From: Candidatus Scatovivens sp.
GTDB lineage: Bacteria; Bacillota; Clostridia; TANB77; CAG-508
Assembly: GCA_045646345.1 (NCBI GenBank)
Contig: JAZRKN010000005.1
Location: 56,737-120,736 of the forward strand
Reading direction: 5' to 3'
Length of the DNA stretch: 64,000 nucleotides
The translations under genes and the position numbers were made by a program. Shown here piece by piece: positions 14,687-55,156 of this stretch. The first letter of the stretch is position 1. Every line of letters starts with the position of its first letter. Below the pieces are notes generated by a model. The model did no database searches, had not been told where the DNA came from, and saw only the letters and a list, made by a program, of their open reading frames with translations.

Positions 14687-14877
14687 AAGTATAGTATAAC
14701 ATAGTTGACCATAAAAGTCAAATTATGTAAATGTTTGCGGAGCTATCAATAAAAAGATTTACATTTTATGTAAACAGTGATAGAATATAATTAAGATACA
14801 AAATATAGCTGCCTTAAATGTACGAAATTCGCATTAAGAGGTTTGCATGCCTCGTGATATAATTATCGGAGGAAAAA

Positions 14878-15195
14878 ATGATAGAAGATAAGATATTAAA
14901 CATTATTATAGTTTTATTTGTGATTTGTGCTTTTTTGGAAATATACAGGGTTAAATCCTTGTGCTCTGATTATCAGAAGGCAAAAATAAAAGAAGAAACG
15001 ATATTAATCATTATGTTTATTTTAATGTTGATTTGTTTTGCTTTGGCAATAATTCTACTTTTAAATGTCATTTCAGGTATTGATATCGGATACTTGTATG
15101 ATTCCAATGTTATTTCAAAAAATAATGCTTCAAATCCAAATTTTGTAGCTTATTATGATCCGGCTACAAAAACGGTTAGGTATCGAGCACAATAA
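14878..15195 (+). CDS. Hypothetical 2-TM membrane protein (solitary cassette A)
   Basis: GGAGG SD; promoter TTTACA-17-TAGAAT (14758-14786); terminator 15227-15260. Confidence 0.7.
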   Translation: MIEDKILNIIIVLFVICAFLEIYRVKSLCSDYQKAKIKEETILIIMFILMLICFALAIILLLNVISGIDIGYLYDSNVISKNNASNPNFVAYYDPATKTVRYRAQ

Positions 15196-15433
15196 AAATT
15201 AAACTCTATGCAGCTATGTATATCGTGAGCTGAAGGGGCTAACTCTTCAGTTCTTTTTTTGTAAAATTATTTGAAAATTTGCTGTGCAAAATTATGTGCA
15301 GATTCGTTAAAAATGAAAATGACTGAAAAACAATAAAAAATGAGTAAAGTCTTAAACTTCACTCATATCAATAAATATAGCAGTTTGGAAAATAATAAAA
15401 AAAGATGAAAAAGGTTAACTTTTTCATCTTCTA

Positions 15434-15508
15434 TGGTGACCCCTACGGGAATCGAACCCATGATTCCACCTTGAGAGGGTGGCGTCTTAGCCGCTTGACC
15501 AAGGGGCC
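15434..15508 (-). tRNA. tRNA-Glu (anticodon CTC)
   Basis: GGCCCCTTGGTCAAGCGGCTAAGACG-CCACC-CTCTCAA-GGTGG-AATCATGGGTTCGATTCCCGTAGGGGTCACCA; cloverleaf with encoded CCA. Confidence 0.96.
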
Positions 15509-15663
15509 GTATTTGTCAGCTATTTATTTATAACATATTTTTATTTTTTAGTCAATAACTTAAATGATTAAAATTAATAAATAGACTTTAAAAAATAATA
15601 GAAATCTTTTTTACCTTGAAAATTGTGTTTGAGTGTGATATAAAAAAATTATGAGGTGATTTT

Positions 15664-16158
15664 ATGGAAGAAAAAAAAGTTGGAAAAAGAGAAGATTATA
15701 TATCATGGGATGAATATTTTATGGGGATAGCAATGCTATCTGCTGAAAGAAGTAAAGATCCAAATACTGAAGTAGGAGCTTGTATTGTTAGTCAAGACAA
15801 TAGAATATTATCAATGGGATATAATGGGGCTCCAAGAGGATTACATGATGATAAAATGCATTGGAATAGGACTGGATCTTTTACAGAAACTAAATATGCA
15901 TATGTATGTCATGCTGAGCTTAATGCTATATTAAATTATAGAGGGGATTTAAGTAATTCAAAAATATATGTAAAATTATTCCCTTGTAATGAATGTGCAA
16001 AAGCGATAATACAAGCTGGAATAAAAGAAGTTATATATAAAGAAGATAAATATAAAGATGCTGACAATGTAATTGTTTCAAAAGCGATGTTAGATTCTTG
16101 CGGAGTAAAATATACACAATATGAATCAACAGGAAAGAAAATTACATTAGAATTATAA
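15664..16158 (+). CDS. dCMP deaminase family protein
   Basis: SWDEYFM, RSKDP, GYNG, HAELNA and PCNEC. Confidence 0.93.
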   Translation: MEEKKVGKREDYISWDEYFMGIAMLSAERSKDPNTEVGACIVSQDNRILSMGYNGAPRGLHDDKMHWNRTGSFTETKYAYVCHAELNAILNYRGDLSNSKIYVKLFPCNECAKAIIQAGIKEVIYKEDKYKDADNVIVSKAMLDSCGVKYTQYESTGKKITLEL

Positions 16159-16175
16159 AATTAAAGAGGATAATT

Positions 16176-16799
16176 ATGAAAATAATATATGGAACAACAA
16201 ATAAAGCAAAAGTTCATGCTATGTATGGAATTGTAAAAAATTATGGATTTGATGCTGAAATATATACATTAAAAGATATTGGTTTTACAGATGAAATTAT
16301 AGAAGATGGAACAACTTTTGAAGAAAATTCGCTAATAAAAGCAAAAGCAATAGCTGAATTTTGTAAAAAGAATAATATAACAGATAAAATAATATTAACT
16401 GATGATGCAGGGTTGTGTGTAGATTATTTAGATGGTGCTCCTGGAATATATACAGGAAGATATGCAGGAGATCATGCACCACAAATAGATAATATAAATA
16501 AGCTATTAGAAAATATGAAAGATTGTACTAAATTAGAAGATAGGACTTGTAAATTAGTTTGTGTGTTAACTGCTATATTGATAGATGGAAATGTTTATAC
16601 AGCAAGAGGTGAATGTACTGGAACAATTGCTTTCGAACATGGAAAATTAGGAGGATTAACTTTCGGTCCTGTGTTTATTCCAAAAGGTTTTGATAAACCA
16701 ATGGGAGATATGGAAGAGGAAGAATATATATCAGTGCATAATCATAGGGATTTGGCTATGAATGAATTGATGAAAAAATTCAAAGAGTTAGGATATTAA
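16176..16799 (+). CDS. Ham1/RdgB-family non-canonical purine NTP pyrophosphatase (divergent)
   Basis: TTNKAK, EDGTTFEENSLIKA, DDAGLCVDYLDGAPGIY and NHR. Confidence 0.85.
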   Translation: MKIIYGTTNKAKVHAMYGIVKNYGFDAEIYTLKDIGFTDEIIEDGTTFEENSLIKAKAIAEFCKKNNITDKIILTDDAGLCVDYLDGAPGIYTGRYAGDHAPQIDNINKLLENMKDCTKLEDRTCKLVCVLTAILIDGNVYTARGECTGTIAFEHGKLGGLTFGPVFIPKGFDKPMGDMEEEEYISVHNHRDLAMNELMKKFKELGY

Positions 16800-16806
16800 T
16801 AAATAT

Positions 16807-16874
16807 ACCACTTAGATTAAGAAAACAACCACATGGCTTAAATTTAAGATTTTTCATAATAATGATGTTATAAT
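16807..16874 (+). promoter_or_regulatory. LytTR-binding direct repeats and promoter
   Basis: ACCACTTAG (16807-16815), 12-bp spacer, ACCACATGG (16828-16836), then TGTTATAAT, directly upstream of a LytTR gene. Confidence 0.7.
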
Positions 16875-53068: not shown

Positions 53069-53143
53069 ATATTGGCTTGTATATTGAAAATTGTGTCGAA
53101 TGGTAGTATAATAAGCCAAAAGAAACAAAAAAGAGGTAAAAAA

Positions 53144-53668
53144 ATGAAAAAGGAAGCTGGGTTGTCTATACTTTCATTAATAATTACAATTGTAATTTTA
53201 TTAGTAATTGCAGCCTTTTTAGGAAATAAAATTTTTGGAAAAAATGGAATATTTGAAAAGTATAAAGAGACTGAGAATGAATACAATAAGGCTGAAATTG
53301 TAGATATACTAAATCAAGTTGCAAGGGAAAAATATGTTTTAGATTATAATTATGCAATAGAAAATAATTTAAAACCTGAAGAATATTGTTCACCAGATAA
53401 TTTGTTTAAGTATTTATTAGATTGTGGTTACTTAGAACAATTAAAAGATATTAAAGACAACTTAGTTCAAGACCAATATTATATAATTCCAGAATCACTA
53501 AACGGAAATTTAGCAATGAATGCAATTAATGAAAATGGTTCTGAAAGTAATGGAACTAAAGTTTATAAAGTGAAAAAATTAGAAAATAAATATATAATTT
53601 TCTTTGTAGATAAATATGGAGATGAAGAGGAATTAGGTGAATTAGATTTAAATCCAGTTATAAAATAA
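53144..53668 (+). CDS. Type IV pilin-like protein (class III signal peptide, no Glu5)
   Basis: MKKEAG-LSILSLIITIVILLVIAAFLG...GKNGIF. Confidence 0.6.
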   Translation: MKKEAGLSILSLIITIVILLVIAAFLGNKIFGKNGIFEKYKETENEYNKAEIVDILNQVAREKYVLDYNYAIENNLKPEEYCSPDNLFKYLLDCGYLEQLKDIKDNLVQDQYYIIPESLNGNLAMNAINENGSESNGTKVYKVKKLENKYIIFFVDKYGDEEELGELDLNPVIK

Positions 53669-53713
53669 AAAGAAATGAGTTTTTTGCTCATTTCTTTTTG
53701 TTTTATATATTTT

Positions 53714-54580
53714 TTAGTTTAATCCATAAATATTTTGTTCTAATAATGTATTTACTCTTTTAACTGTTTTTGGGTTATCAGAATTTTTTGCGTTTTCAAT
53801 AAATTCTGGATGGTCTATTAAAAATTGTTTCATTGAACCATCTGGATCTTTTTTGAATTCTCTAAGCATTGTTAATTGTTCATCATTTATAACTCCAAGC
53901 TCTTTAGCTGTTGTGAATAATGAATCATCAATTTGAAGTAAAGAGTGAACTTCAACACCATCGTTTGTAAGAGTTTCTGTTCCACCTTGCATTCTATCTA
54001 CAGCAAAGATACTCCATACAATATTTGAACCTAAATTTTTGATTGCTGGAATCCAAGCTCTTGTGAAACTTGCTGATTGATTTAAAAGGTCAGCTAAGTG
54101 TAAGAAATTTTTTCCTTCAATTGAACTAACAGGTTCTGATGAAGAAAAATCACTGTTACTTAATACTGTTGTTAAATCTTTGTATATTGTTACATGAGGT
54201 TTGTTTAAAAGGTATGCCATTATATTTGAGAAATACCAATCTCTTCTTTCACCACCAGAAATGTAATCTATATTTTCTAAACCAATATTTTTTTCAACAT
54301 ATTCTTTCATTTGGTCTATAACATATTTATAAATTTCATTTGTATTGTAGTGGTCTAAAACTTTTTTAAAGATATGTTCTGGGATATCGGTTTTGCTTTC
54401 GTTTTCTAATTCTTGGTCAATAAAAGATAAAAGATCTTTTGAATCTTGTTCACTTCCATAAAGATAATCAGCATTTATGAAATATGGTCCAATTTTTCCT
54501 GATGTGTACCAGAATGGATTGTTTTCTTCTGCAACTTTAAATGCGTTTGTTTCGAATAATAATGACATTAATTTACTCAT
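53714..54580 (-). CDS. pyrE: Orotate phosphoribosyltransferase-like protein
   Basis: FWYTSGKIGPYFIN, PRPP loop HLADLLNQSAS and VDR.QGG; divergent from the pyr operon. Confidence 0.7.
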   Translation of the reverse strand: MSKLMSLLFETNAFKVAEENNPFWYTSGKIGPYFINADYLYGSEQDSKDLLSFIDQELENESKTDIPEHIFKKVLDHYNTNEIYKYVIDQMKEYVEKNIGLENIDYISGGERRDWYFSNIMAYLLNKPHVTIYKDLTTVLSNSDFSSSEPVSSIEGKNFLHLADLLNQSASFTRAWIPAIKNLGSNIVWSIFAVDRMQGGTETLTNDGVEVHSLLQIDDSLFTTAKELGVINDEQLTMLREFKKDPDGSMKQFLIDHPEFIENAKNSDNPKTVKRVNTLLEQNIYGLN

Positions 54581-54698
54581 TATATTTACCTCCAAATAAT
54601 ATATTTATTTTATTGCAAAAAAATACACTTTATTTAATGTATTTTTTTAATAATATAGTAAATATAAAAGATTGTCAATTAGATTAAATTTAAAAGGT

Positions 54699-54725
54699 AA
54701 AAAAATAAGGGGGAAATTTCCCCCT
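54699..54725 (-). terminator. GC-rich intrinsic terminator of cassette F
   Basis: AGGGGGAAATTTCCCCCT followed by TATTTTTTT. Confidence 0.85.
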
Positions 54726-54740
54726 AAGTGCTCAACAGGT

Positions 54741-54980
54741 TTAACGTACGTTTCTAATTTTTGGCTTGGTTACCATATAACGGATTGTGTGGAAAATTCC
54801 GATAGGAATCACAATGCATGATGTGAAGATGATTGTGTAAATGAAAGTTGATAAAACACCTTCACTGATGCATGCTCCGCTGTAAACCAAATCGTAGCCC
54901 AAAAGAATTCCGGGTATACAACTAACTAGATAAACCAGTGTGATTCCCAGGAAAATTTTTTGCATAAGCCGTTTAGTCAT
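54741..54980 (-). CDS. Small 2-TM membrane protein (solitary cassette F)
   Basis: SD AGGAGG; own TATAAT and terminator; GC-richer than its neighbours. Confidence 0.7.
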   Translation of the reverse strand: MTKRLMQKIFLGITLVYLVSCIPGILLGYDLVYSGACISEGVLSTFIYTIIFTSCIVIPIGIFHTIRYMVTKPKIRNVR

Positions 54981-55156
54981 AATGTACCTCCTGCATACAT
55001 GAGTATTTTTATAATTATACTACAAAAAGTAAAAAAATAAAAGAGGTAAAATTTTTTATGAAATTTGCGTGAATTAAGCATTTTTTAGAATAATTTTTAT
55101 TGAAAAAATGAGTGATAAATGATAGAATGAGAAAAAATTATGTCGGAGGTAAAATA

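Follow-up and report, generated by a model that had tools for sequence, protein, structure and literature searches.

Stand-alone genes with foreign-type codon usage and early CGG codons in a gut Clostridia order, and their possible reading as mRNAs for another bacterium

Six single-gene units in the window (the whole stretch of 64,000 nucleotides that was analysed) are samples of a genome-wide class of dozens of stand-alone genes, here called cassettes, in an AT-rich gut bacterium, and the common signature of this class is foreign-type codon usage with early CGG. We tentatively propose, with a probability of about 0.45 and on sequence evidence, that these genes may give rise to self-locked mRNAs, which would be read by the ribosomes of another bacterium and would likely be delivered by a T4SS. 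A literature search that covered mainly the main texts of open-access papers found no account of this gene class.

The six units and the class they sample

The earlier note on this DNA had described six single-gene units with terminators. This description was borne out, the -10 element being TGn-extended in units A-E and an unextended TATAAT in F, and the GC counts given for three 60-mers (28, 27 and 11) were reproduced. The features are the following:

14758..15261, + strand: unit A, -35 at 14758, extended -10 at 14778-14786, terminator 15227-15261
14878-15195, + strand: unit A ORF, 105 aa, membrane
14803-14812 with 15210-15219, + strand: unit A 5'/3' helix, 10 bp
15437..15508, - strand: tRNA-Glu(CTC)
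19726..20745, + strand: unit B, extended -10 at 19726-19734, 5' hairpin, terminator
19806-20687, + strand: unit B ORF, Cys-rich N-terminus, predicted TM stretch, SleB-type cell-wall hydrolase (PF07486)
19869..19871, + strand: CGG, putative lock codon, codon 22 of B
32231..33496, + strand: unit C, extended -10 at 32231-32239, terminator 33464-33496
32312-33439, + strand: unit C ORF, putative diverged RelA/SpoT synthetase fold
32351..32353, + strand: CGG, putative lock codon, codon 14 of C
37095..37648, + strand: unit D, extended -10, terminator, 132-aa ORF at 37237-37635
37110-37236, + strand: unit D leader, 127 nt, conserved hairpin
42439..42897, + strand: unit E, extended -10, leader hairpin, terminator
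42524-42871, + strand: unit E ORF, 115 aa, two Cys pairs
54700..55019, - strand: unit F, -10 at 55019-55014, terminator
54980-54741, - strand: unit F ORF, 79 aa, membrane
54969..54971, - strand: CGG, putative lock codon, codon 4 of F

A and D have host-like codons and are probably distinct from B, C, E and F. Unit A, which has zero CGG, is a tRNA-linked mini-island and not a core member of the class; the tRNA-Glu(CTC) gene is the probable attachment site used by it, and in G050, upstream of a near-identical unit A (96% aa), lie a paralogue and a second copy of the 3' half of tRNA-Glu. Unit D, with low GC3 and CGG in 0/6 alleles, is a separate or marginal member, and an Rfam search of its leader gave no match. 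Unit E is devoid of CGG; its codons are of the foreign type (six ATC and no ATA, four CAG and no CAA), and its homologue in G044, located at a different site, has two CGG.

When the same layout was scanned for genome-wide, a near-consensus promoter combined with a terminator was found at 68 of 109 high-GC3 ORFs vs. 69 of 1227 host ORFs. The cassettes are scattered over about 70-90 chromosomal sites, their median product is about 195 aa, and their GC content exceeds the roughly 6% that corresponds to mutational equilibrium. The GC shift spans the distance from the transcription start to the terminator and is present in both gene orientations, which led us to reject a lagging-strand effect as its cause. 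The ribosome binding sites (RBS) are strong (-11.4 vs. -9.5 kcal) and the proteins are under purifying selection, thus the cassette proteins are meant to be made. Set beside integron cassettes, which have attC sites in an array with an integrase, the units are solitary and have no common end motif. We found no export motif common to the leaders, where k-mers yielded RBS words only, and the region before the terminators showed only weak C enrichment. No obvious high-GC3 singletons appeared when 20-40 kb samples of four genomes (G026, G008, G060 and G028) were inspected, although the T4SS is order-wide, and a DNA search with two cassette-rich stretches in five relatives found no more near-identical cassettes.

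Several other candidate causes were rejected. Loss of Rho was weighed together with purine bias (PMC13323073), and rho was found in G000 and in 60/75 genomes. A long-range anti-SD idea is described in PMC12697547; anti-SD words were not enriched above codon shuffles. Avoidance of UA dinucleotides was discarded, codon junctions being alike in both gene classes.

Codon usage, early CGG and the tRNA set

Host genes contain CGG at 8 of 432,044 codons, every one of these within the final 20 codons of an ORF, and out-of-frame CGG is not depleted. In the cassettes 44 of 15,686 codons are CGG, aligned to Arg in orthologues, and CGG in the body of the genes is about 60-fold over host. The codon is concentrated at gene starts: its share of the cassette Arg codons is 67/288 in the first 40 codons vs. 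39/1113 (p=1e-23), a 6.6-fold enrichment that is seen in frame only. Early CGG is present in 65 of 136 cassettes, and the remaining, unlocked 71 also show whole-gene codon tuning. Held-out genomes of the order gave the same early enrichment (16/54 vs. 23/275, p=7e-5), which a set of 50 genes from other Clostridia did not show (14/99 vs. 100/612). Among the B orthologues 25/27 have CGG within 50 codons, on different residues in different lineages, and all four alleles of C carry it, first at codon 14, 16, 69 or 84. CGG was kept in 18/39 cases vs. 0.17-0.27 for other CGN codons. Low-GC3 genes with a strong promoter and terminator had no CGG (0 in 65).

The difference in codon style extends along the whole cassette gene, where ATA, TTA, CTA and CCA are avoided and ATC, CTG, CAG and CCG are favoured, against the organism's own tRNA set. 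Cassette codon usage is fitted better by pooled other Clostridia (29.9) than by the host with four fitted base shifts (54.6), and the usage of G043 cassettes matches that of G000 cassettes (5.8). Cassette codon use is also lineage-specific, with a GC3 of 0.49 in the G044 clade vs. about 0.25.

No tRNA-Arg with a CCG or TCG anticodon was found in G000 by ARAGORN, Rfam or stem scan. By a D-arm pattern, tRNA-Arg(CCG) was found in 0/75 genomes of the genus, 72 of which yielded ACG or CCT tRNAs, and in 3/10 other Clostridia (genus vs. outside p=0.001); since only 3/10 outside genomes gave CCG tRNAs, the sensitivity of the pattern is limited. It must be noted that Ile and Ala tRNAs are absent from the assembly, thus tRNAs may go unassembled. 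A short tRNA pattern applied order-wide gave 95/401 matches, which is the chance level when compared with controls, and it was likewise noisy on outside genomes; inspection of 10 loci revealed one tRNA, in G512, the only informative case. This order genome has a divergent tRNA-Arg(CCG) within a divergent AT-rich tRNA array, which may be of phage origin.

The secretion system and where the messages may be read

The chromosome encodes a core T4SS consisting of a pilin array (tandem VirB2-like), PrgI and VirB4, plus two coupling ATPases. VirB4 is present in 191/201 genomes of the order, and the MOBP-type relaxase PF03432, the sole relaxase family searched, was not found. We know of no proven case of mRNA as T4SS cargo between bacteria. 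The T4SS and the small genome hint at a possible host-dependent life. The organism is a spore former with several sigma factors, and pyr-like genes read from the sequence of the window suggest that it makes its own pyrimidines. Two sources (PMC12102498; 10.64898/2026.06.21.733656) describe for Patescibacteria and the RNA-feeding patescibacterium OT8 a similar core VirB4-PrgI-pilin array, mostly without relaxase, in small genomes, with parasite codons unlike those of the host, and the same T4SS layout was found essential for growth on a host in one species (PMC12102498). The differences are that those systems concern host-to-parasite RNA uptake or unspecified cargo, whereas ours is a spore-forming Clostridia order, and that the available descriptions (PMC12102498; 10.64898/2026.06.21.733656) include no self-locked gene class in host codons.

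The mechanism that we propose would begin with discrete single-gene transcripts, presumably started at the observed near-consensus sigma-A promoters and ended at the strong terminators. The higher G/C content and additional folding along the whole transcript may make these mRNAs durable. Early CGG would stall the ribosomes of the producer, because tRNA-Arg(ICG), edited by TadA (which the genome encodes), is unable to pair with CGG under standard wobble, and the messages would be stockpiled untranslated as host-takeover mRNAs. The codons of the whole gene fit a fuller Clostridia tRNA set, to which they may have been tuned. The T4SS, a machine that is present, would pass the mRNA into another bacterium, where the products would probably act. 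Their families include wall hydrolases, a putative alarmone-synthetase fold, nucleases, an RNase, a protease and duplicates of energy enzymes, as well as Adk, glycogen phosphorylase, sortase and predicted lipoproteins. For unit C, Foldseek gave E=1.6e-4 to B. subtilis SAS1 at low TM; four of its five remote homologues pass PF04607, and C itself has altered motifs and no Pfam match. Export, one of the possibilities named in the earlier note, may have been named rightly. The fast evolution of the cassettes and the swapping of their alleles are in line with the proposal. Against translation in another bacterium speak the cassettes without early CGG, including A, D and E, the pyr-like genes, the lack of a common export motif, the CCG tRNA of G512, the limited sensitivity of the tRNA pattern, the tRNAs missing from the assembly and the four genomes sampled with no obvious high-GC3 singletons.

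It is conceivable, if unlikely, that the traffic goes in the opposite direction: the mRNAs would stay, and host-derived tRNA taken up by the cell would read CGG, contact thereby triggering effector synthesis. The entire codon evidence fits this scheme, and a preprint describes a cultivated patescibacterium that imports host RNA at a contact with T4SS-like tubes (10.64898/2026.06.21.733656). However, the same preprint has the host RNA degraded for nucleotides (10.64898/2026.06.21.733656), and whole-gene tuning, which includes the 71 unlocked genes, demands a foreign bulk tRNA pool.

We are similarly doubtful about an in-cell rheostat, by which potentially toxic, strongly transcribed genes would be throttled by an early codon slow for tRNA-Arg(ICG or unedited ACG) and perhaps released at one life stage. 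The early placement of CGG and its retention relative to other CGN codons agree with this explanation, as do spore formation and the several sigma factors, but it explains neither the avoidance of ATA, TTA, CTA and CCA against the cell's own tRNA set nor the strong RBS and the frequency of CGG in the gene bodies. The precedent is bldA/TTA of Streptomyces (PMC13500790). There core genes avoid, as with CGG here, a codon that a special gene class retains; this codon gates translation, and TTA genes are also reported to be expressed without the tRNA. The bldA tRNA is encoded and regulated, whereas here the cognate tRNA gene was not found and the whole gene is in another codon style.

Very unlikely in our view is a defence trip-wire, in which phage-borne tRNA-Arg(CCG) would unlock toxic cassettes and abort infection. 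The G512 array and the nucleases and alarmone-synthetase fold among the products are in line with it, but Adk, glycogen phosphorylase, sortase and lipoproteins are not, and the whole-gene codon shift would go unexplained. In stop-codon-recoded phages, harmful lysis genes are silent until another tRNA is present; here the codon is a sense codon, the genes are in a cellular chromosome and the key is not in the same genome.

Folding, descent and meaning

The earlier note had regarded the units as mRNAs selected for end-to-end folding, or as relics of an RNA-based element. Extra structure in one transcript class was confirmed: folding z scores against dinucleotide shuffles were negative for all six units (A -3.0, B -1.2, C -5.7, D -2.7, E -1.7, F -2.5; those of B and C rest on just 8 and 6 shuffles), the class exceeds host mRNA in its degree of structure (codon-shuffle z -1.15 vs. 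-0.48, p=2e-6), and in-silico orthologue chimeras lost more folding energy in cassettes than in host genes (p=0.02). End-to-end folding did not hold up as the unifying feature. The ends of cassettes do pair better with each other than with swapped partners (permutation p=0.00025; host 0.64), and long-range helices exist in A and C, but the signal comes from about 10/68 cassette units (host 2/72). Of the four units with claimed 5'/3' complementarity, A (p=0.022) and C (p=0.005) exceeded shuffles and F (0.12) and B (0.66) did not; D and E were mid-field against swapped partners (0.31 and 0.46). No covariation of the terminal helix was seen in C, whose 3' arm is altered in the sister allele L128. 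The proposed shared motifs fared no better. GGAAATTTCC has a further occurrence within a host gene (34105) and differs in 3/3 C orthologues, TAACTTTTTTT has 29 genome copies and forms in B the loop of a local 5' hairpin, and the motif common to D and F is the RBS plus start, lost in D orthologues.

Type I toxin mRNAs have long-distance 5'-3' pairing, by which a stable, structured message is held untranslated. The helices of A and C resemble this, but most units are helix-free, the products include large enzymes, the lock would be a codon, and the RBS is bound by the 3' end no more (0.11) than in codon-shuffled controls (0.12), which speaks against the suggested silencing by end pairing. With end pairing limited to a minority of units and the RBS not concealed by the 3' end, a panhandle does not work as the mechanism of the class. 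An RNA-element origin is not supported either: no reverse transcriptase (PF00078) was found in five genomes carrying such genes (G000, G043, G050, G016 and G049), and the precise ends and target duplication of a retroelement or RNA replicon are likewise missing, the latter in agreement with the earlier note and with empty sites in relatives (recN-sigK in six genomes, dnaJ-patatin in L132 and the E and F sites in G043). End folding is also silent on CGG, and we consider the earlier view highly improbable.

The least probable explanation is that the cassettes are unameliorated acquisitions from phages or from donors of higher GC, or that GC-biased conversion or mutation acts on strongly transcribed genes; no base-level process yields in-frame CGG at gene starts. 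Turnover is high, 16/34 anchored sites being empty or replaced in G043, and the cassettes evolve fast, with alleles swapped, including unit C between strains. Unit E resembles viral clusters by features. However, gene B, which occupies a single site in 16 genomes, gives a tree congruent with that of recN, and its GC3 is 0.18-0.50 vs. 0.06-0.17 in the flanks; the GC shift is maintained in place over long residence, and the transfer view is refuted for B. Between G000 and G043, host genes show a nearly complete turnover of G/C at 4-fold sites, whereas cassettes retain it. The codon shifts are family-specific (CTG/CTA x32, GCG/GCA x1.4), unit C was not found in viral contigs, a prophage location of the cassettes was not supported, and PHROGs gave no specific phage family. 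The transfer view may still apply to individual recent acquisitions such as A. Phage morons and early-gene cassettes are promoter-ORF-terminator units with fast turnover and products of no known function; ours share the own promoter and terminator and the quick turnover, but are vertically kept, GC-richer than their surroundings, non-ameliorating and not in prophages. DGR-like A-directed mutagenesis was rejected, T-to-C being up as much as A-to-G, and so was the idea that high transcription adds mutations: G-to-A and C-to-A are below host genes, in estimates that are near saturation and for a class picked on GC3, and the 65 low-GC3 genes with a strong promoter and terminator have no CGG. An apparent absence of C from run X1 was also dismissed, a divergent allele having been found there; the lack of cover of B in X1 is uninformative.

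Returning to mRNAs read in another bacterium, it is possible, though rather doubtful, that this uncultured gut order consists of parasites that would attack bacteria with mRNA: stable messages in host codons, silenced at home by an abandoned codon, would be injected by the T4SS for translation in the victim. Patescibacteria might act in a similar way. If true, this would offer a sequence-only readout of genes meant for another cell in an uncultured bacterium, and a candidate for what the chromosomal T4SS of bacteria with small genomes, so far unexplained, may carry. It would also give a clue to the culture resistance of the order, with the hint that the host reads CGG and has matching codon use. 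A chromosome that combines two codon styles with a selected early codon, apparently unreadable, would be a new form of translational control also if one of the in-cell rivals holds.

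Definition and history of the cassettes

The genome (1.79 Mb, 28% GC, 96.7% complete) is that of a spore former, sporulation-type sigma factors being encoded in the window; the sequencing runs used are of gut origin. The GC3 of its ORFs is bimodal, with a host peak at about 0.12 plus a tail. A strong promoter was found for 80 of the 109 tail ORFs, a terminator for 85 and both for 68, against both for 69 of 1227 host ORFs (p=8e-47). A looser rule gave 87 cassettes in this genome and 51 in 1.23 Mb of its relative G043. Base frequencies at four-fold sites are A.31, C.15, G.13, T.41 in cassettes and A.53, C.02, G.05, T.40 in host genes, and the shift begins at the transcription start and ends at the terminator.

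Pfam returned no match for 43 of the 57 cassettes in the 20 densest stretches; matched cassettes include adenylate kinase, glycogen phosphorylase, FtsH-like, beta-CASP, SleB-like, HNH, colicin-type DNase, radical SAM, sortase and GNAT proteins, several being distant second copies of host genes. The cassette adenylate kinase is at most 39% identical to any match in 250 class genomes. The unit C product is predicted to have a RelA/SpoT synthetase fold and is under purifying selection. Proteins P0011-P0022 form a ~350-aa family, not named in the sources consulted, in which the N-terminus is long and helical and a RelA/SpoT synthetase domain is present. Searches of the open literature found no description of the cassette class.

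Orthologues of unit B, a SleB-type hydrolase gene, were found complete or nearly so in 26 of the 74 other genus genomes (27 loci with the present one), mostly at the recN-sigK site. In the 16 B genomes with recN in view, to which the tree comparison was restricted, B falls into the same clades as recN and its branches are longer, roughly two- to three-fold as judged visually. The GC3 of B exceeded that of its flanks in 16/16 cases. Between the present genome and G043, retention of four-fold G/C was about 0.13 for host genes and 0.44 for cassettes. The mutational equilibrium, estimated from rare variants at 16 loci of a related species, is about 6% GC (singletons 7/1397 vs 7/88, small counts; p=0.002 against 28% GC). 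Because B tracks recN, G/C is retained and the equilibrium is so low, we consider cassette GC to be maintained, and inheritance of this GC from a donor was rejected on the same grounds. The L122 cluster (16 loci) also showed a strong T-to-A excess in coding-strand singletons (18/481 vs 6/916), and its hrcA region is often replaced or broken.

Cassettes diverge faster than host genes (66% vs 89% amino-acid identity). Sites could be anchored for 34 of 87 cassettes, 53 being not scorable; in G043, 18 sites held the same cassette, 5 a replacement, and 11 were empty. Cassettes also swap alleles between strains. At locus L128 D is 99% and C 89% identical, with most neighbours at 94-99%, and in sequencing run X1, ~99% identical elsewhere, one contig shows 244 differences over the C-D stretch, where the C promoter has been replaced.

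The early CGG codon

The codon-ratio shifts are family-specific (CTG/CTA x32, CAG/CAA ~x19, CGG/CGA x17, CCG/CCA x11, GCG/GCA x1.4), and Arg-CCG, Leu-CAG/GAG, Gln-CTG and Pro-CGG were not found among the 33 tRNAs of the genome. With four base shifts fitted, cassette codon usage is nearer to the pooled genes of 11 other Clostridia (0.8-3 thousand codons per genome) than to the host; taken one by one, G296, G096 and G174 were the only comparators to do better than the host baseline.

This pattern is clearest for CGG. Host genes contain 8 CGG among 432,044 codons, each of them close to an ORF end, a scarcity specific to the reading frame, and those of G043 contain 8 in 302,515. In 20 stretches taken from 13 order genomes the low-GC3 ORFs had no CGG, and the GC-richer ORFs of two of these stretches, in G077 and G011, had none either; a wider many-locus pass over low-GC3 genes gave 26 CGG among 5154 Arg codons. 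CGG occurs in 44/86 cassettes here and 32/50 in G043, the first one lying within 40 codons of the start in 36 and 29 cassettes, respectively. In a test independent of the class-picking rule, CGG was the one codon strongly enriched at the 5' end (p=1.5e-23, against 5e-5 for the next codon). The excess is in-frame only, recurred in held-out genomes, among them members of three other families, and was absent from other Clostridia. B carries CGG within 50 codons in 25 of 27 loci, at differing residues (the exceptions are a fragment and a gene with CGG at codon 78), and 3/3 host sleB paralogues lack it.

A tRNA-Arg(CCG) was found in 0/75 genus genomes and in 3/10 outside genomes. The order genome G512 has one divergent copy in an array of divergent AT-rich tRNAs (L280:1483-2238), which we infer to be phage-like. 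TadA is present beside tRNA-Arg(CCT). Under standard wobble rules this pair would provide no reader for CGG.

RNA structure and leaders

Cassette bodies outfold dinucleotide shuffles (mean z -2.26 for the 25/68 units shorter than 520 nt; host units -0.57, 6/72 units) and also codon shuffles (111 vs 137 windows). The earlier note proposed panhandle mRNAs, the 5' end pairing with bases just before the terminator; this held for A and C and failed for the other window units, such pairing being enriched yet rare among cassettes. In the 25 cassette and 13 host units compared, end pairing did not hide the RBS.

RNA features in the window
37110-37236: D leader, long conserved hairpin
14610-14690, minus strand: structured leader, one of two copies
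23045-23140, plus strand: structured leader, the other copy
22799-22990: 6S RNA

Across the 5 alleles aligned, whose proteins share as little as 31% identity, the D leader is conserved and keeps the blocks AGAGTAC and GGTACGAAAG invariant; it has no Rfam match and is a candidate new cis-regulatory RNA. The twin leaders precede unrelated genes of no assigned function (13763-14494 and 23257-24105) and match the manganese yybP-ykoY riboswitch weakly (13 bits, cut-off 45).

At L231 (G050:C81, in a relative) tandem A paralogues have a duplicated 3' half of tRNA-Glu between them, an arrangement that suggests accretion at a tRNA of islets without integrase. An isolated tRNA 3' half at C11:89932-89988 of the present genome is probably an old attachment site.

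Where the messages may be read

We place B, C and F in the class as locked members, with the early CGG as the proposed lock, and E as an unlocked one; the D gene has a conserved leader of its own, and A is a tRNA-linked, recently exchanged islet.

A host-coded operon with 0 CGG (C14:133442-155594), annotated on its G043 orthologues, encodes at least six tandem type IV secretion (T4SS) pilins, PrgI, VirB4 and three very large proteins of no assigned function; two coupling ATPases are encoded elsewhere, and the relaxase profile PF03432 gave no match. VirB4 in 191/201 order genomes indicates that a chromosomal T4SS is order-wide. This arrangement is on record for Patescibacteria (PMC12102498), where it is cited as needed for growth on a host. 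A bioRxiv preprint (10.64898/2026.06.21.733656) describes RNA uptake from a host together with complementary codon usage.

Because a strong promoter, a strong RBS, a conserved protein and foreign codons are combined with an early codon for which no home tRNA was found, cassette messages are best explained as being read by another cell's tRNAs. RNA is favoured over DNA as cargo because the sites are dozens and scattered and the shift is confined to the transcript. Two rival accounts, import of host tRNA into the producer and an in-cell throttle of cassette translation, are each less likely than export. The message would be exported, with a probability of roughly 0.45, and translated with the tRNA set of another cell.
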